Origin: Scenedesmus sp. PABB004
Lineage: Eukaryota
Reading direction: 5' to 3'
NCBI GenBank assembly: GCA_014905635.1
Contig: JABVCE010000042.1
Location: 62,001-126,000, forward strand
Length of the DNA: 64,000 nucleotides
Each line of letters opens with the position of its first letter. Within the stretch, counting starts at the first letter, position 1. The notes beneath the pieces were generated by a model that had not been told where the DNA came from, searched no databases, and saw only the letters and a program-made list of their open reading frames with translations. Positions 53,003-64,000 of the stretch are shown piece by piece. The position numbers and the translations under genes were made by a program.

Positions 53003-54412
53003 ATGCCGTCGGGTGCGCAGGCGACGGCGCTCGGCAGCGCGCCCGCGGCGCGGCCATCCTCGCTGCCGCAGCAGCCGCGCCCACGCTCTGCCTCTCTTGC
53101 CCGCAGGCTTCCGGCTGGACACGGACGCCTGGCTGAAGGAGTATGAGAAGTGCAAGGACCTCACGCAGGAGATCGTGACGCTGGTGCAGGTGCGGCGCCG
53201 GGAGCAGCGGCGGCGCGGGCAGCTGGGGCGCCGCCCCCGCTCGCTCGACAGAGCGGCGGCGCCGCGGCGGGCCTGACGCGCCTGGAGCGCCGCTGGAGCG
53301 CTGCTGGAGCGCCAGCCGGCGGGCGGCGGCGGCCGCGGCGGCCGGCGAGCAGCGGCCGGCGGGCGTCGCCGCTTACACCCGCGCCCGCGCGCGCGCAGGA
53401 GCGCAACCTGCAGCACCCCGACGGCGGGCCCGAGGCGTCGCGCATGACCGCGAACGCGCGCCGCAAGCTCGGCACGCTCGGCACGAGCCTGGACCAGCTC
53501 TTCCGCTGGATCGACTCGCCAGAGGCGGCCGCGCTGTGAGCAGCAGCGCGCCGCGCGCCGCGCGCCGCGCGCCGCCCGCCGCAGGGGCCGCGCGGGCGGC
53601 GGGCGCGCGCAGCGCGGCGCGCTGACCGCGCCGGCGACGCCGGCCGCGCCGGCGCCGCAGGAGCGAGCAGGAGCGCTTCCGGCGGCGCGACCTGCTGCAC
53701 GCGCTCAAGCACCGGCGCGAGCAGGTCCAGCAGAGCATCAAGCGCGGCGCCAACAGCAGCGACAGGTGCGCGCGGCCGGGCGCCCGCGGCGCCGCGGCCG
53801 CGCCCCGGCCGACGCGCGCGGCCGACGCCGCTCGCCGCGCCGCAGGGAGTCGCTGCTGGCGGGCGGCGGCGGGCCGCGGCAGCCGGCGCGCGAGACGGAG
53901 GCGACGGCCGAGCTGGACGGGCGGGGGCTGGTGCAGCTGCAGCAGGCCGTCATGGCGCAGCAGGACCAGGAGCTGGAGCAGATGGAGCGCACCGTCATCA
54001 GCACCAAGGTGCGCCGGCCGCGGCTGCTGCAGCGGCGGGCTACTGCAGCGGCGGCCGCTGCAGCGGCGGCGGCGCCAGCGGGCCGCGCGCGCCAGCGGGC
54101 CGCGCGCGCCAGCGGGCCGCGCGTGCCAGGGCCCGCCGCGCTCACCCGTCGCCGCCGCGGCGCGCGCGCGGCGCGCCGCAGCACATCGCGCTGACGATCG
54201 GCGAGGAGGTCGACCTGCACACGCGGCTGCTCACGGAGCTGGACGAGGACGTCGACGTCACGCACACGCGCCTGCGCGCGGCGACGAAGCGCGTGCGGCA
54301 CGTGCTGCGGCACAGCAGCAACTGGAAGGGCGGGCTGTGCATCTTCATGCTCATCATCTGCCTCACGCTGCTGCTGCTCGTGGCGTTCAAGGTCATCCGC
54401 CTCTTCAAGTGA
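53003..54412 (+). CDS. SYP5: Qc-SNARE, syntaxin-of-plants 5 / syntaxin-8 type (6 exons)
   Basis: DAWLKEYE, RRKLGTLG, RRRDLL, QDQELEQMERTVISTK|HIALTIGEEVDLHTRLL, C-terminal TM helix. Confidence 0.92.
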
Positions 54413-54832
54413 GCCCATCGTGTGGTGGCAGCGCGGTGGCAGCGAGCTGGGGAGGTGGCATGACGGCGTTGTACATCAGACTTTTGGGGGGGGGGGGGGA
54501 TCGCACTTGAGCATTTCATCGGCGCCGCGCCGCCCGCAGCCCTCTCTGCTGCGGCGGCGCGGCGCAGCGCCGCGCGGGGTTTCGGGCGCACCTGCAACCG
54601 CTCCGACACCGCCTATCTCCCGCGACCGGCTCACTCACGGGCGCCAGGCACTCTCCCAGGGGTGCCTTGCGGGGGCCACGCGACCGCAGCGACCGCCGCT
54701 CCCGGCTCCTGCGCCGCCCGCGCAGCGCTACGCCTTCTCCAGCGTGGCTTGCAGGTCGCGCAAGTGCTGTGACAAAGCCGGCGGGCCGTGCCACTGCGGG
54801 GCGGCAGCAAACAGCGCGGGTCAAAGCGGCAG

Positions 54833-57800
54833 ATGTCCCGCCCGGGCTGGAGCCTGGCGAGCATCGGCATCCCCATCGACACCATCGTCCGCGTGCATGG
54901 CGGGGCGCCCGGTGCGCGCGGCGGGGCGGCGGCGGCGGCGGCGGCGGCAGCGCTGGCGGCAGCCGAGCGCGCGGCGCCGTCGCGGCGTGGCGCTCCACAG
55001 GGGCCCGGCAGGACCTGCAGACCTCCCGCAGCCGCGTGTCCATCATCAGACCCGGCGCGTTGCAGCCAAAGCCGTGAGCGGCGGCGCCTGGCGCAGCGCG
55101 CAGCGCGCCACGCGCGGTGCCAGACCCCGCCGCGCCGCGCCGACGCTCCGCCTGCGGCGCGCGCTCGCAGGGAGGACGAGTTTGACGTGACCTATGTGCG
55201 CGCGCGGCGCCCACGCGGGCGGCGGCGCAGGCAGCGGCGCCGCGCGGCACGCCGGCCGGCGAGCGCTCGCTGCCGGTGACGCGCGCCGGCCGGCGCCGCA
55301 GGTGTACGGCCGCGACGCGGAGCCGGCCGACGTGCACGCGCGCAGCATCGCGCCGCTCGTGCGCAAGCTGGTGGAGGGCTACAACGTGGCGGTCCTGCTC
55401 TTTGGCGCGACGGGCGCGGGCAAGACGTCGACGCTCGAGGGCGCGCGGGCGCGCGCGCCGCGGCCCGGCGGCGGCGGCGACGCGGGCGCCGAGGGCGACG
55501 GCCTGGTGCACCACGCCATCGATGAGCTCTTCGCCCTGCTGCACGGCAAGGCCGTGAGCATCGGTGCGCGAGTGCAGCGCTGGCGGCCAGCGCCCGCGGC
55601 GGGCCCCGGGCCCGGCGCGCCGGGCTCCGCGCGGAGGCGGGCAGATCGCGGGTCTCCAGGGCGGCCCCGACGCGCCACGCGCGGCCGCCGCGGCCTGCCG
55701 CCGCAGGGGAGGCGGTGGCCAAGCGGCGGCGCGTGCCCGCGGCGCGGGGGTTTGACTGGTTTGTCGAGAGCAGCTTTGTCGAGCTCTACGACGAGGCCGC
55801 GCACGACCTCCTCGCGCGCGACGCCGCCGCCGCGGCGGCCGCGCTGCCGGTGCGCCGCGCGCGCGCACGCGCGGGCGGCGGGCGCGGGGCGGCCCCGCGG
55901 CGGCGGCAGGGCGCGCCGCCCCCCGTGCCGCTCCACAGCCGCCGGCCGCGGCGCGGCGCGCAGGTGGCGGAGGACGAGACGGAGGGCCCCGTGGTCACGG
56001 GGCTGACCGCGCGGCCCGCGCGCGGCGCCGACGAGCTGCGCGCCGCGTTCAACGCCGGCGCGGCCGCGCGCGACAGCCACCGCAGCGACCTCGGCAGCGT
56101 GCACGAGCGCGCCGCCGCGCTCTTCACCGTGAGCGTCGCGCAGCACGCGCCCGCGGCGGTGCACGGGGAGGAGGACCGCGTCATGGTGCGGCGGCAGACG
56201 GCGGCAGCGTCGCTGGCGCGAGGGCAACAATGGCGCGCGCGCGAGAGGCCGGCCGGCCGGCCGGCGCGCGGCCGCGCCTGCAGGTGTCGCGGCTGACGTT
56301 TGTGGACCTGCCCGGCGCGGAGCGCCTGGCGATGGACCCGGAGGTCCTCCGCCTGCGCGAGGGGCTGTCGATCAACCGGGGCCTGCTCGCGCTCGCGCGA
56401 GTGCTGCGCGCGCTGGCGCAGGACGGCGGCGGCGGCGGCGGCGCGTTTGCGGGGCACGACGACTCGCTGCTCACGCGCCTGCTCGCCGGTGCGGCGCGGC
56501 GCGGCGTGCGCGGCGCGGCGTGCGCGGCGCGGCGTGCGCGGCGCGTGGGCGCCGCGCACGGCAGGCCTCAGTGCTCCCAGCGCTCCCAGCGCTCCCCGCG
56601 CGCGCGCGCCGCCGCAGACGCGCTCGGCGGCAACTGCCTCACGCTGCTCGTCGGCGCGGTGCGCGTCGGCGACGACTTTGAGTCGACGTCGGCGACGCTG
56701 CGGCAGCTCGCCGTCGCGCGCGGCGTGCGCAACTTTCCCATCATCAACCACTCGCGCGCGCGCGGCCTGCTCAAGGGGCTGCGGCACCGCCTGCACGCCG
56801 TCATGGTGCGTGCTGCGCGGCGCGCGGCGCGCGCCGGGCGGGGCGGGGGAGAGGCGGGGCGGACCAAACACACCGCGCCGCCGAAAAAAAACACCAGCTC
56901 CGCCTTGGGGGCGTCACGGCACCCCCACGGGCGCCACTGGCGCCGGCACACCAGCCGCGCCGAGCAGCGGCGGTTGTGCAAAAAAAACGCCGTGCCGCCG
57001 GGCGCGGCTCGGGGACCCAGAAGCGCCAGCAGGCCGCTCGCCCGTGCAGCCCGCCTCGCCGGCCGCACCCCGGGCGCGACGCAGCGCCGTCAGCGCGCGC
57101 GAGGCCGAACAGCAGCAGCCAGCAGCGCCGCGCGCCCGCGCTGGTGGTTGGCCGCGCATGGCGGCCCCTGGGCCCGGCATGGGTGCCTGGAAGCTCGCGT
57201 GGATGGTGTTCGCCTATGTGTGGATGGCCATCGCGTCTGGTGCGGCGGCGCGGGCGGCGCGAGCAGCGGTGGTGCTCGCCGCGGGCCCGCCGCACCGCCG
57301 CGTCACGCGCGCCGCGCGGCTGCGCAGGCTGGATCAAGCTGCCGCTGCCCTATCCGGCGGTGAACCAGTACGCGCACCCCGTGCCGGGGCACGTCTACCC
57401 CTGGCGCCCGGGGTCGCTCGACAAGGTGAGCGGCGGGCGGCGGGCGAGCGCGCCCGCGGCAGCACGCGCCCGCGGCAGCACGCGCGGCGACGCGCCGGGC
57501 CGCGCCGCGCAGGGCCGGTTCAAGGTGCGCACGCGCCTCAACGCCACGCGCCTGTTCGAGGGCGTCGTCACCGGCTCGGGTGCGGCGGCGGCGGCGGCGG
57601 CGGCCGGGCCTGCGCGCGCGCCGCGCTGCCGCCGTCCTGTCCTGACCGTCCGCCGCGCCGCCGGCCGCGCCAGAGTCTGTGACGAGCGCCCCGGACGGTC
57701 GCTTCATCATGCTGGACCGCTACGGCGCGGTGCGCGCCGCGGTGCCCGTGCCCGGCGCGGGCCGCGGCGAGGCGCCGCTCGTGCTTGAGCCGCGCCCGGT

Positions 57801-60800
57801 CGCGCACCTGGGGCCGGGGCGGCCGCTCGGCGCGGCGTACGACGCGGCCGGCAACCTCATCGTCTGCGACTCGCTCAAGGTGTGTGTGTGTGTGTGTGCT
57901 TGGGGGGGGGGCATGGGTGTGTGCGTGCGCGTGCGCGGCGCGGCGGCGCCTCCTGGCTCGCCGCGGCCCACACCCGCCCCCCTCCCCACTCCCCCTCTGC
58001 CGCCGCGGCGCGCTCGCGCAGGGCCTGGTCATGCTCGAGGCGGGCAGCGGGCGCGTCGTGCTGCTCACGAGCCGCGTGAGCAAGAGCAGCCCGTCGGGGG
58101 CGGGCAGCCTGCTGAACTACGTCAACGACCTGGACATCGCCCCAGACGGCACGGTCTACTTCACCGACAGCGTCGACATCCACCCCCACCGCAACGCGCA
58201 GCCGGTCAACGACGTCACCCACATCATCTCCATCCAGGGCGACCCAGGCTTCTACGACACCGCCAAGTCGTGGGCGCTCGGCATGCTGCAGGTCCAGGCC
58301 TGGTGGAGCCGCGCGCCGCGTGCCGCGCACGCGCCGCCGCCTCGCCGTGCCGCTGGCACCGCCGCCAACACAGCTGCCGCCGCCGCCGCCGTGCCGCCAC
58401 CAACGCCGCCGCCGCCGCGGCGCAGGGCCTGCCGCGCGGGCGCCTGCTCGCCTACTTCCCCGGCAACCGCAGCACGCACGTCGTGTCCGAGGGCTTCTAC
58501 TACCCCAACGGCGTGGCCCTCGGCCCCGACGGCACCTGGCTCGCGCTCGCGGAGACCGACCGCCTGCGCGTGCTCAAGTGCGCGGGCGCGCGCGGCGGGG
58601 AAGGTTCTTTGGGGTGGCGTGGGGTCCGGTCGGTGGGACGCGGGTGGGCGCGGGCCTGGCTCGTCTCTGACGCGCTGCGCCGCGCCGCGCCGCGCGCCGC
58701 CGCGCGGCGCCGCAGGGTGTGGCTGCCGCCGCACCCGGCCGCGGGGCGGAGCGAGGTGCTGATCGACGACCTGCCCGGCACGCCCGACGGCATCCACCAC
58801 GCGCACGGCGGCGGGTTCTGGGTGTCGCTGCTCTCCAACATCCCCGGGTACACGCGCTGGTTCGGCATGCCCCTCGTGCGCGGCGTGCTGGGCTGGATCC
58901 CGGAGAACCGCCGCCCCCAGGCGCGCCGCCCGCCGCGCCGTGCCGCCCGCCGCGCCGCCCGCCGCGCCGCGCTGCCCGCCGAGCGCTGAGCGTGCCCGCC
59001 GAGCGCGCCCACCGAGCGCGCCCGCTGAGCGCGCCCGCTGAGCGTCCGTGCGCCGCCGCGCGTCGCGCGTCCAGGTGCCGAGCTGGGGCGCGGTGCTCAA
59101 GGTGACGGCCGACGGCCGCGTGCTGCAGTGGCTCGTTGACCTGAAGGGCGAGTCGGTCGCCAAGATTCCCTCCGCGCACGAGGCGGGCGGGCGGCTGTTC
59201 TTTGGCAACCTGGCGGGGCGCTACGTGAGCTACATTGACCTGGACACCCTGCCGCCAGACGGCGCGGAGGTCGGGGACGAGTGAACGGCCGGCCTCCTGG
59301 CGCGCGCATTCACCGAGGCGCTGGGGGCGCCGCGCGGGGGCGGCGGGCGGGGCGGGGCGGGGCGTGGGCGTGGGCGTGGGGAAAGGGAGGCAAGCCAGCG
59401 GCGCCTGCGGCGGGTGCGTGCCAGCGGTCGCGGAGCATGGCGGGCGCGTGGGCCAAACCAACTGCAGCGAAACAAGGGATACGGGGGCTGCAGCACTGCC
59501 AAGCCTGCGCCAGGCCCACGCGTCAAGCGGGGAGGCCCACGCGTGTCAAGCTCGTTGGCGAGGCCTCACAAACTTCTTCAGGCCACAAACGGGGCCGGTG
59601 ATGAGGCGCACGGCGCGCGGCGCGCGGGCGCGTTGGACTGGACGGGCCGCGAGCGGCGCATCTGTCGGGCCGCCGCCTTGTGCGCGCTCGCATTTCACAC
59701 ACGCTGTAATTCCACAGACCCGGCCGGCCGGCGCCCGGGGGGTCGGTCGGCTGGCTGGTGTTTGACGCCGCGCTGCACCGCCTCGCCTGCGCAGGCGGCT
59801 GGCGCCTCACGCCGCCGCTGCCGCCGCCGCGCGCGCAGGAGGACCGCGAGCTGCTGCGCGACCAGCTGCGCGCCGCGCCCGCGGAGGGCGACCCGCAGGA
59901 CAGGGCGATCAGCATCGCCAAGGTGCGGCGGCCGGGCCGCGGAGCGGCGTCGCCGCGCGCACGCGCCGGCACTGCGGCGGCCTTGTGGTGCGCACGCGCT
60001 CACGCGCGCCCGCCGGCCGCCGCCGCCGCGCAGCTGCGCGACCTCGAGGCGCGCCTGCTGGAGGAGCGCGAGGAGAAGGTGGCGCTGGCGGGTGGGCGCG
60101 GGCGTGGGCCCCGGCCGCGCGGCGGCCCGCCGCCGCGCGCGGCCGGCTGACACCACCGCCCGCATATGCGCCGCCGTGGGGGCGCCGCAGGTGAAAAGGC
60201 CTTGCTCGCTGCGCGGCTGGCCAAGCTCAAGGATGCGGGCACCGACGAGCTGCGCGAGAGGGGCGAGCTGCAGGAGGCGCTCGTGCGGTGGGCCGGCGGG
60301 CTGGGCCGCCGGCGCGCGCCCGCGCCGCCGCCGGCGCGGCGCGGCCGCGGCGGCGCGCCGCCGCTGAGCTGGTGCTGCCGCCGCCGCCGCCGCCGCGGTC
60401 AGGTCTGAGGAGCAGCGGCTGGAGGTGTCGCGCGCGCTGATTGATTTTGAGGTGGAGACCAACGAGGCGCGCGCGGCCTGGGCCAAGGAGCGGTTTGCTC
60501 TGGAGCAGCGCATCCTCGAGCTGGAGAGCGGGCGGCTGGAGCACCACGTGCGGCGCGAGGACCACGCCGCGCTCGCGGACGAGCGGGACGCCCTCGCCGC
60601 GCAGCTGCGCGCGCAGGGCGACGCGACGGCGCGGGCGCAGGCAGCGCTGGACGCGGAGCGAGAGACGGTGCGTGCGCGGGCGGGGCAGGCGGGCGGCTGT
60701 GCGCGCCGGCGCGCGCCCCGTGCCGGCACTCGTGCTGCGCACCGACGACGCTCCGCGCCGCGCCCCGCAGTCGGCGGCCGCGCAGGCGGAGCTGCGGCGG

Positions 60801-63575
60801 CTGAACCAGCTGCTGGCGGCGCTGGAGGCGGCGGCGGCGGGTGCGTGCGCTGGCCGGGCGCGGCGCCGCCGCAGCAGCGCGGCTGGGCGGCGGGGCGCTC
60901 ATGTGCTTTTGTGCGCCGGCGTGCTTGCCGCCGCCCGCCAGGCGACGCCAGCGCGCTGCTGCTGGACCACACCGAGGACGGCGGCGGCCAGCCGGGCTCG
61001 GCAGCGGCTCTGCGCTCGCGGGCGGCCGCCGGCCTGGGCGGCGGCGGCGGCGGTGCCGGCACCAGCGCCGGCGGCGGCGCGGCGCGGATAAACCTCGCCG
61101 AGGTTCGGCTGCAGCTGCAGCGGCAGCTCAAGCAGCAGGTGAGCGCGGGACCTCGTGCGCAGGGGGCGGGGTCGCTCGCCGTGCCGGGACGCGGCCGGCG
61201 CCGGGCCCCGCGCCAGAGCCGCCGCTGCACCCGCGCCGCCCGCGCAGGAGCGGCGCATCGGCGAGCTGGAGTCGCAGCTGGCTGAGGCCACGCAGGGCCT
61301 CGAGGCCGCGCAGGCGGCGCGCAGCAGCACGCAGGAGGCGCTCGACCAGGTGGGTGTGCGGGCAGCCGGCCGCGCGCGCTGCCGGCCGGCCGCCGCGGTC
61401 CTCGCTGCGCGCGCCATGGTGTCTGACCGCCGCCACGCGCTGCGCCGGCAGGCGCGCTCGCTGTTCAGACGCCGCATGGAGGGCGCGGCGCGCGAGGTGG
61501 CAGACCTGTCGCAGCGCGTAGCCGTCGCCGCGGGGTGCGCGCGGCGCGTCCGCCGCCCGCGGGCGGGGACGCCCGCGGGCGGGGACGCCCGCGACCGCGC
61601 GCCGCGCCGCACGCCGCGCTGCGCCGCCGCCCCACGGCCGCCCTGCACGCGCCGCGCCCCCGCGACAGCGACCCGGGGCACCTGCTTGCGCTTGGCCCGG
61701 ACGAGCTGCTGGCGCGGGTGAGCCGCTTCATCGACGAGCTGCTCCAGGTGCGGCGGCGGGGCCCGGCGGCGGGCTGCGGTGGCCCGGCCAGGGCTGGGTG
61801 GGCCCCCTGGCAGCGCGGTGGTTGCGCAGCGGCGCGATCCGCCGCTGCGCGCGCGCGCGCCGAGGCGCAGGCCGCCGGCGACGCGGCCGGCGAGACGCGG
61901 CGCGACGCCGAGGCGCTCGCGGCGCGGCACGCCACACTGCGGCGGCGGCTGCGCACGCTGTACGCGGGGTACCGGGCGCTGCGGTACCGAGTGGAGGACG
62001 AGTGGCCCGCCTCGGGTGGGCGGGGTCTGGACGATGGGTGATGCTGGCCGGGGCAGCGGGCTGGCGGGCGGCGCGGGCAGCACGGCCCGGCGGCAGGCCC
62101 CGCGCCGCGCCGCGGGCGCCCGCCGACCGCGCGCGGCGCGCCGTGCCCGGTCGGACCGCTCGCAGGCGCGGGCGCGCCGCCGCGCGTGGCGCACGAGGAT
62201 GCGGTGCTGGGCGGCAGCGTGGACGAGGTCATCCGGTGAGGGGCCCCACGGGGCGGTGCGGGCCCGGCCGGCGCGCCAGCGCGGCGTGCTGTGTGGCGTG
62301 CGGCGCACGCCTCGCCGTGCGCGCGCCGCCGCCGCCCTGAACGACGCCGCGCCCGCCGCCGCGGCGCAGCGCGGACGACGACGCCGACCGCCAGGCGCTC
62401 GTGCGGCAGCAGCAGAAGGTCGCGGCGCTCGAGGCGGTGCTCGCGGGGCTCAAGGTGCGCGGCCGCCAAGGGCGGCGCGGGCAGGGCAGGGAGGCAGGGC
62501 AGGGCAGGGCAAGGCAGGGCCCCGGCACCCCCCGCTCATGCGCTCTGCCGCCGTTGCTGCCGCCCGCGGCGGCAGGTGAAGCAGCTGGAGTGGGACACCA
62601 TGGGCGCCGCGGGGGCGGGCAAGCTCAGCGCCGCCAAGGGGCAGCCGGGCAACGGCAACAGCAGCGGCGCAGGTGCGGCGGCGCACGGGCGCGCCGGCGG
62701 CAACGGACCGCTGCCGGCCGCGGCGCCCTGAGCTGCTGCGGCGCGCCGCGCAGGCGCTGCGCCGGCCGCGCTGATGCTGGAGAACGCGCGGCTGCGGGAG
62801 GAGCTGGACGGCCTGCGGCGCCGCCTGCCGCAGGTCGGCCTGCTGCGGCGCAGCGGCAGCAGCGTCGGTGACGGCGCACAGGCGACCGCTGCGGCCGGCG
62901 GTGCGCTGGAGCAGCTCACGCAGCAGCTGGCGCAGGTGCGCGGCGCGGGCCAGGGCGCGGCGCTGCTGGCTCCGGCTGGGCCTCGCCCGTGCGCTCACCC
63001 GCGCGTCCGCTGCGCCCCGGCCGCGCAGCTGCGCGCCGAAAACCAGCGACTGCAGGCGGCGGCCGCGCGCGGCGGCGCCGCGGCGGCTGCGGCGGCTGCG
63101 GCGGGCGGCGCGCCGGGCCGCGCCGGCGTGGGCAGCGGCGCTGGCTCGGCCGAGCTGCGCCGGCAGGTCAAGGAGTTCACCCTGAACACGCAGCTCGAGC
63201 TTGAGCAGAAGCTCAAGGTGCGCTGTGGCTGCCGCGTGCGCGGCGGCCACGCACCCCCGCGGGCCGCGCCGCGCGCTGAGCCGCGCCGGGCGCCGCCGCC
63301 GCAGGCGGTCGAGTCGCGGGCGGTCATGGCGGAGGAGCAGCTGGCGCACCTGCAGGTGGTCGGCGCGCGCCACGCCGCGCCGCGCTCACGGCCAGCGCTC
63401 ACGGCGAGCGCTGGGGCTGAGCTGAGCCTCACCTTGCGCCCCCGCCCGCGCCCGCCCACGCCCGCCGCGCCCACCACCGCAGCGCTACATGGCCACCGCG
63501 AGCGTGACGTACCAGCGGGAGATCGTGCGGCTGCGCGCCGCGCTGGGCGGCGGCAGCGCGGCGGCGGGGCAGTGA
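54833..63575 (+). CDS. Kinesin motor domain fused to a CCDC78-like coiled coil; intron 56806..59838 hosts another gene
   Basis: EGYNVAVLLFGATGAGKT, SFVELYDE, LTFVDLPGAE, SINRGLLAL, SLLTRLLA|DALGGNC; later SEEQRLEVSRALIDFEVETN..RFALEQRILELE and KEFTLNTQLELE..RAVMAEEQL..YQREIVRLR (CCDC78 signatures). Confidence 0.85.
57158..59284 (+). CDS. Strictosidine-synthase-like / APMAP-type beta-propeller protein (8 exons), nested
   Basis: N-terminal anchor, GS|ES, GRPLG, NYVNDLDIAPDGTVYFTDS, GRLLAY, FYYPNGVAL, LAET, DLPGTPDGI..GFWV, LFFGNL. Confidence 0.93.
59705..59709 (+). promoter_or_regulatory. TGTAA polyadenylation signal of the nested gene, inside the kinesin intron
   Basis: TGTAA about 420 bp after the stop at 59284 and about 130 bp before the host acceptor at 59838. 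Confidence 0.55.
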
Positions 63576-63611
63576 TCGCGGACAAGCCGTGGGAGAGTGC
63601 GGCCTCACGTG

Positions 63612-63947
63612 TTAACATGTGCTCGTTTGTTCGTGACCGCGCGCAGCTCCGTGACCGCACACAGCGCGCGAGTCCCATATAAGTCTCTCAATCAGCCACC
63701 GCCGCCCCCCACGCCCACACCCTGCCGGCGCGCGGCGGCGCGCGTGCGCCCCGCGGCCCGCGCGGCTCGATTCCGCAGCGCGCGCGCTCAGGTCGCGCGC
63801 GATACAAGTTGGGCTACCATCACAGCCTTTTAGGCACGCCACGTGTGTTGGATCGGGCCGCAAGAGCATGAGGAAGGGCAAGCAGTCGTCAGGCAGTGCT
63901 CGCGGGGCACAAAGGGCCGCCCCGAATCCATCGCGGCCAGCCCGCAC
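63612..63947 (-). CDS. Possible last exon of a gene entering from the right edge
   Basis: More complex amino-acid composition than background (LPDDCLPFLMLLRPDPTHVACLKGCD); no family recognised. Confidence 0.25.
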   Translation of the reverse strand: MRAGRDGFGAALCAPRALPDDCLPFLMLLRPDPTHVACLKGCDGSPTCIARDLSARAAESSRAGRGAHARRRAPAGCGRGGRRWLIERLIWDSRAVCGHGAARGHEQTSTC

Positions 63948-64000
63948 GCCGCGCGCGGCGCCGGCCGCTTAGGGCGGCGCGCGCGCGGGCGCGGGGCTCA

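Follow-up and report, generated by a model that had tools for sequence, protein, structure and literature searches.

Evidence for a multi-exon strictosidine-synthase-like gene nested on the same strand within a kinesin-CCDC78 intron of the alga Scenedesmus sp. PABB004

Gene models at the locus

The window considered here, a 64,000-nucleotide stretch of DNA from Scenedesmus sp. PABB004 (contig JABVCE010000042.1 of assembly GCA_014905635.1, positions 62,001 to 126,000, forward strand), carries towards its end the exons of a kinesin motor, of a strictosidine-synthase-like gene and of a coiled coil of the CCDC78 type, one after the other and all on the + strand. The G+C content is ~80% across the whole window, and low-complexity repeats occur in the region. 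By reading positions 54000-64000, three gene models (motor, nested gene and coiled coil) have been assembled from exon coordinates. We propose, as a reading of the sequence to which we assign a probability of about 80%, that the motor and the coiled coil form one gene and that the strictosidine-synthase-like gene lies on the same strand within one of its introns.

The motor half of the putative host gene (54833..56805, + strand) is modelled with 8 exons (54833-54911, 55001-55073, 55171-55195, 55302-55563, 55707-55849, 55964-56185, 56284-56488 and 56618-56805), whose introns are all GT-AG and whose 399 amino acids (aa) comprise the kinesin motor and neck. In a single-exon Pfam search, Kinesin (PF00225) has been matched on motor exons 4 and 7 (1.5e-11 and 8e-11, respectively), and an alignment of the spliced model with the Enallax costatus transcript P0023 has shown 255 of 388 residues of the motor half to be identical. 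Exon 8 (56618-56805) terminates with ...CAC GCC GTC ATG|GTGCGTGC (HRLHAVM), in phase 0 and without a stop. Several low-complexity Gly/Ala inserts of the motor (window 55302-56488) are missing from Enallax. Within the same interval of the model, the P-loop reads GATGAGKT and switch II reads DLPGAE, which resemble the kinesin consensus motifs GQTxxGKT and DLAGSE, and switch I appears divergent.

The coiled-coil half (59839..63575, + strand) has been modelled with 17 exons (first 59839-59922, last 63483-63575) and GT-AG introns throughout, and it encodes 648 aa followed by TGA. Coding restarts at 59839 after CGCGCAG|, again in phase 0, and reads EDRELLRDQLRAAP (EDRELLRDQL). The single-exon Pfam search has placed DUF4472 (PF14739, the CCDC78 domain) on the exon 60403-60667 with 4.5e-11, and the alignments give 315 of 458 identical residues with Enallax P0023 and 227 of 314 with the Tetradesmus obliquus model. 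Under the spliced model, the host would comprise 25 exons and 1047 aa, with Kinesin at the N-terminus and DUF4472 in one and the same polypeptide. The evidence supports the view that this host is a single gene, in which a kinesin motor is predicted to be fused to a CCDC78-type (DUF4472) coiled coil across a spliced intron 8.

Host intron 8 (56806..59838, + strand; donor ATG|GTGCGTGC, acceptor CGCGCAG|GAG) is 3033 bp long, and the whole nested gene stands inside it. The other 30 introns of the three models (7 in the motor, 7 in the nested gene and 16 in the coiled coil) measure 81-154 bp with a mean of 113 bp, which makes host intron 8 ~27 times as long as the local mean. Both of its splice sites fit the local consensus of these 30 introns, and its flanking exons show no alignment gap against orthologues in which the sequence is contiguous. 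The original prediction had described a phase-0 join without a stop between a motor end at 56805 and a coiled-coil start at 59839, and this has been recovered to the nucleotide; the intact strictosidine-synthase-like gene with its own ATG, stop and TGTAA, which it had placed in the 3033-bp gap, has been confirmed by the 8-exon model described below. Its figure of 100-300 bp for the other introns has turned out roughly right, the measured values being those given above.

A coiled-coil start hidden inside the gap has been considered and ruled out, as no ATG-started frame leads from the gap into coiled-coil exon 1: the ATGs at 59437 and 59601 both run into a stop after 54 codons, before the acceptor is reached. 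Coiled-coil exons 1-7 of the window model are themselves free of any Met, the first one not occurring before exon 8, and yet these exons are conserved. Taken together, this indicates that their translation begins further upstream, and the motor offers a start in phase.

The nested gene (57158..59284, + strand) starts with its own ATG at 57158, ends with its own TGA at 59282-59284, and has been modelled with 8 exons (57158-57239, 57328-57425, 57513-57579, 57674-57879, 58022-58291, 58426-58577, 58716-58920 and 59075-59284) that encode 429 aa. Its coding sequence and the TGTAA at 59705 fall wholly within 56806-59838, between two consecutive host exons. Six of its seven introns are GT-AG, as are all other introns of the three models; intron 7 (58921-59074) requires a GC donor, CAG|GCGCGC, which is the sole non-GT donor among the 31 introns. 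The model is collinear with a full-length transcript open reading frame (ORF) of Enallax costatus, P0214, with 281 of 420 aligned residues identical and no alignment gap at any exon junction, that of the GC donor included (...ENRRPQ|VPSWG...), and intron 7 is thereby validated. Str_synth (PF03088) has been matched on nested exon 6 alone with 1e-7 (32.4 bits against a gathering cutoff of 25), and the orthologue P0214 reaches 55.6 bits for Str_synth and shows an SGL match in addition. By its sequence, the nested gene is a member of the Str_synth family, with a putative enzyme-like product. P0214 (421 aa) begins with a Met of the nested gene, ends at the stop of that gene (...PPDGSQIGDD) and contains no host sequence; the same holds for a second Enallax nested-gene ORF, P0031, whose C-terminus is identical to that of P0214. 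In Enallax, the nested gene thus appears to be expressed independently of the host.

The motor-coiled-coil join in relatives and its alternatives

The spliced window model has been aligned with 11 relatives, among which 8 are contiguous across exactly ...VM|ED..., 2 are motor-only read-throughs (P0010, P0028) and 1 is a fusion of the nested gene with the coiled coil (P0004). Three of the contiguous sequences are transcript-derived, namely those from Enallax costatus (P0023, ...RFRLMNVM|EDRETLRDQLRAAPAEGDP..., EDRETLRDQL), from Chlamydomonas euryale (MMETSP, P0029) and from a further MMETSP data set (P0038), and the remaining ones belong to Monoraphidium minutum (P0005), Monoraphidium neglectum (P0015), Raphidocelis subcapitata (Rsub_06126, P0018), Sanguina aurantia (P0008) and Cyanophora paradoxa (P0043). 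Kinesin and DUF4472 have both been confirmed in P0023, P0018 and P0043, and a search with P0008 against 1.84 billion representatives has yielded many further proteins, for which the best matched stretch spans from the motor into the coiled coil. The idea that orthologous kinesin-CCDC78 genes are contiguous in relatives has been borne out by these sequences joined at this very point, and also by a metagenome locus (L001) in which the neck and the start of the coiled coil lie in one exon.

Several observations weigh against the proposed arrangement. Within the Enallax kinesin cluster of 9 members, one is the spliced motor-coiled-coil form, two (P0010 and P0025) are motor-only ORFs that read through the donor and then stop, coexisting with the spliced P0023, and three (P0021, P0022 and P0024, all marked as 'complete') begin at a Met within coiled-coil exon 1 (MAINIAK...), where the window carries Arg. 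The last three imply transcript contigs with a non-motor upstream part, which could be an unspliced intron or an internal start. Removal of the host intron may be inefficient, or other transcripts may exist; the mix of forms fits a slow or incomplete removal of a large intron and would equally fit alternative transcripts. Moreover, the Enallax gene behind the spliced transcript P0023 may or may not contain the nested gene in its intron, and the sole hint that it does comes from Logan contigs of 14158 bp that carry an Enallax-like nested fragment (P0215) and a coiled-coil fragment (P0006). For Scenedesmus sp. PABB004 itself, the junction 56805^59839 rests on the genome sequence and on the transcripts of relatives, TGTAA is not enriched in the window, and the splicing order considered below, with the nested introns removed first, is purely conjectural. 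Finally, the annotation of T. obliquus gives a motor-only gene (P0028) and a nested/coiled-coil fusion (P0004), and GenBank fuses all parts for PABB004 (P0001).

A parallel to the pair P0215/P0006 is formed by P0032 (nested) and P0007 (coiled coil), which derive from Logan contigs that are both 10911 bp long. The equal sizes within each pair hint at a linkage of nested gene and coiled coil in two more algae, provided that each pair stems from a single contig.

The GenBank entry KAF8055598.1 ('SYP52', P0001; 1780 aa), which is 100% identical over the query exons, combines a SNARE gene with the kinesin, the nested gene and the coiled coil, such that four genes are merged into one protein (window 54180-63575). 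In this model, the SNARE gene, which ends at ~54412, runs straight into kinesin exon 3, such that the first two kinesin exons are omitted and two introns are read through; the nested gene is entered by an acceptor in its 5' flank and is left from a GT located 15 nt before the nested stop. A long G run is found after the SNARE stop (54486-54499). The evidence favours three separate genes, one of them nested, over this merger. The T. obliquus model P0004 and the Flechtneria rotunda transcript ORF P0003 both end with ...RVAL(S/A)AG, corresponding to the end of coiled-coil exon 8, and these ends look as if the next intron had been retained and opened with a stop; the rest of the coiled coil of T. 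obliquus must have its annotation at another place or have none. The public models of the locus are probably wrong in two species, PABB004 and T. obliquus, and such mis-annotation matters to users of these algal proteomes.

The alternative that survives best is a functional split, in which the insertion has broken an ancestral gene so that the motor is made alone and ends in the intron or close to it, the coiled coil is expressed from a start in the gap, and no transcript of this species connects 56805 with 59839. We consider this unlikely. It would account for the T. obliquus annotation, in which the motor is a gene of its own (P0028, P0009) with a reading frame that continues into the intron, for the two motor-only and the three exon-1-Met ORFs of Enallax, and for a candidate sense poly(A) signal only 129 nt before the host acceptor. 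The coiled coil of the window, however, lacks a Met in exons 1-7, both ATGs in the gap meet stops before the acceptor, and the coiled-coil exons, including DUF4472, are conserved with frame and consensus splice sites kept. In addition, Enallax does produce the spliced form P0023, and read-through ORFs are to be expected from unspliced pre-mRNA in a transcript assembly.

Even less plausible are real chimeric proteins, in which the nested gene would be spliced to the coiled coil or the motor to nested exons. Such joins are possible in frame from several donors: the host donor could be combined with the acceptors of nested exons 3, 5, 6 and 8, and coiled-coil exon 1 could be reached from the donors of nested exons 2, 4, 5 and 7 as well as from cryptic in-frame GTs in the last nested exon (TAC|GTGAGC after 59224 and GAG|GTCGGG after 59269). 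Two annotation pipelines have indeed chosen joins of this kind (...GNLGGEY|EDRETL... in T. obliquus and ...PPDGAE|EDRELL... in the GenBank entry of PABB004). The donors used by the two annotations are different, however, and an exon block that lacks a start codon is often joined to its neighbours by gene predictors, which we count against chimeras. At the 'Y|V' donor, the Val that follows is conserved at the protein level, the Enallax nested transcripts P0214 and P0031 end at their own stop with the full C-terminus, and neither the Enallax kinesin cluster (9 members) nor the nested-gene cluster (4 members) contains a chimera. Of the two kinds of by-product that the original prediction had envisaged, motor-only transcripts have thus found counterparts in P0010 and P0025, which read through the donor, and motor-propeller chimeras have found none in these two clusters.

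An assembly artefact that misplaced the nested gene between the host halves is hardly credible, since no specific support for it has been found beyond the 80% G+C and the low-complexity repeats of the region, the window is free of N's, and in T. obliquus, an independent assembly of another genus, OEZ85_006108 (motor, P0028) and OEZ85_006107 (nested gene with coiled-coil exons 1-8, P0004) are adjacent locus tags on one 5.17-Mb contig, with the nested gene joined to the same coiled-coil exon 1, an order in common that argues against misassembly.

Splicing, products and origin of the arrangement

If the host is one gene that contains the nested one, its full-length protein would require a transcript that runs through the nested gene and joins 56805 to 59839, and this transcript would have to traverse a promoter, seven introns and a candidate poly(A) signal, all in the sense orientation. 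Given introns of ~110 nt, the nested introns would probably be removed singly, each donor pairing with a nearby acceptor, so that no sites other than the host donor and acceptor would stay unpaired, and these two would then be joined. A cut at the nested poly(A) site or intron retention would result in motor-only by-products. Retention of the whole intron has been computed to add a 185-aa tail to the 399 aa of the motor, with a stop at 57361, and splicing to the nearest foreign acceptor (57328) would shift the frame and add an 11-aa tail.

One may further postulate a conserved isoform switch in the Scenedesmaceae, in which the activity of the nested promoter and poly(A) site sets the balance between full-length kinesin-CCDC78 and a tail-less motor, possibly along with a motor-less coiled coil; this is a speculative extension, with odds well below even. 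If true, a ciliary-tip-type motor would be linked to how an unrelated enzyme gene is expressed, and a 3-kb intron with seven competing sense introns would have to be removed by a spliceosome adapted to introns of 110 nt.

The age of the insertion can be approached through more distant relatives. In a metagenome scan, 2 of 177 pattern matches (L001 and L002) have been confirmed by tblastn. The distance from the end of the last motor match to the first coiled-coil match is ~340 bp in L001 and ~490 bp in L002, and the 3.2 kb and 15.3 kb of sequence, respectively, contain no Str_synth or nested-gene match. In L001, the neck and the first coiled-coil residues share a single exon (RGLLHRMRQRLLAIASDRDTLRDQML), and its intron is located a few codons earlier. 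For the read-through ORF P0017, coiled-coil exons 1-2 have been recovered in the +1 frame, 41-42 codons past the donor, with a score of 107 versus 16 and 41 in the other frames, and accordingly its intron at this place is ~124 nt long. In a separate set of 11 proteins, 8 have read-through ORFs with Val straight after the junction, which indicates that a GT donor at this site is widespread in the order. At this place, the intron of the three more distant relatives (L001, L002 and P0017) is therefore short or missing, and wherever the sequence allows a check, no gene is inserted. On the basis of these sequences the insertion is lineage-specific, present in two Scenedesmaceae genera and absent in three more distant relatives. 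We infer that a pre-existing short phase-0 intron at the boundary of neck and coiled coil would have gained the gene before Scenedesmus and Tetradesmus separated, and since its 7 introns have been kept, the nested gene would have moved as DNA and not via an mRNA copy. With this distribution, the locus offers a dated case of multi-intron sense-strand nesting.

Nested genes are already known as a class, and so is the architecture of the host. In Drosophila melanogaster, 71.27% of the nested genes lie on the strand opposite to their host; of those on the same strand, 72.53% consist of a single exon and the others contain a median of one intron, and the bias has been attributed by the authors to selection against mis-splicing (PMC3814207). 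Like these same-strand nested genes, the algal one would lie complete, from its own start to its own stop, in one host intron, with mis-splicing as the expected cost (PMC3814207). Unlike them, it has 7 introns, and its host intron exceeds the local mean ~27-fold, introns in this genome being ~110 bp long. For mammals, only a slight bias of nested-gene orientation to the opposite strand has been described (PMC11694760), and in host/nested pairs such as H13/Mcts2 a sense intronic poly(A) site can truncate host transcripts (PMC13309782), as could the candidate signal here. The motor-only read-through ORFs of Enallax would fit by-products of the kind seen in such mammalian pairs, the case of the alga being known from sequence. 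A sense-strand nested gene with 7 introns would thus represent the rare end of a known class. In a genome of short introns, it is a configuration that the fly data suggest selection removes, and it provides a natural test of splice-site pairing and poly(A) choice. A literature search has found no published report of nested nuclear genes in green algae, which is weak evidence of absence, and nothing relevant has been found on the evidence behind the T. obliquus annotation.

Regarding the host, a predicted Tetrahymena kinesin with a CCDC78 domain (UniProt I7LVY1) has been placed among the ciliary-tip cap proteins, and vertebrate CCDC78 is described as lacking the motor (PMC10522465, PMC12796433). 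As in I7LVY1, a kinesin motor is followed by a CCDC78/DUF4472 coiled coil in the algal model, a likeness of domain architecture. The combination of motor and CCDC78/DUF4472 reaches as far as the glaucophyte Cyanophora. A kinesin-CCDC78 gene, from a family linked to Tetrahymena ciliary tips, is found intact in the present alga, which is usually described as non-motile.

Candidate elements within the intron

The host donor is separated from the nested ATG by 352 bp, which include two A8 tracts on the + strand (56884-56891 and 56980-56987). They are the only A8 runs of the 64-kb window, in which 5 A-runs of at least 6 and no T-runs of at least 6 have been counted, and they lie 96 bp apart. The tracts may serve as promoter elements of the nested gene, as a nucleosome-excluding element, or as a site of internal priming or termination. 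The motif ACACCAGC is found twice in the same interval (56891 and 56948).

On the other side of the nested gene, a TGTAA on the + strand (59705-59709) is positioned 421 nt past the nested stop and is the candidate poly(A) signal mentioned above. TGTAA is the usual poly(A) signal of chlorophytes. The position suits this role, from which alone the function is deduced, and the count, 2 on the + strand of the 64-kb window versus 2.9 expected from composition, proves nothing.

A 10-bp inverted match between the two flanks (56889-56898 and 59754-59763) had been suggested to help loop out the nested gene, with the reservation that it could be chance. Both arms are present, and the reservation fits: the non-coding flanks contain 10 inverted 10-mers, and at least one has been obtained in 285 of 300 dinucleotide shuffles. 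The match is absent from the 25 longest among 98 inverted pairs, and it appeared rare (1/300) under a post hoc filter of at least 5 A/T that had been picked after the match was seen. As a looping element it has been rejected, being at chance level in these GC-rich flanks. A repeat search for direct repeats or target-site duplications flanking the nested gene has returned only low-complexity G+C-rich families, which offer no clue as to how the insertion came about. Simple repeats are present within the nested gene itself, namely a (GT)n run at the donor of nested intron 4 (57880-57897) and, in nested intron 7, a tandem array of three 13-bp units (58988-59039).

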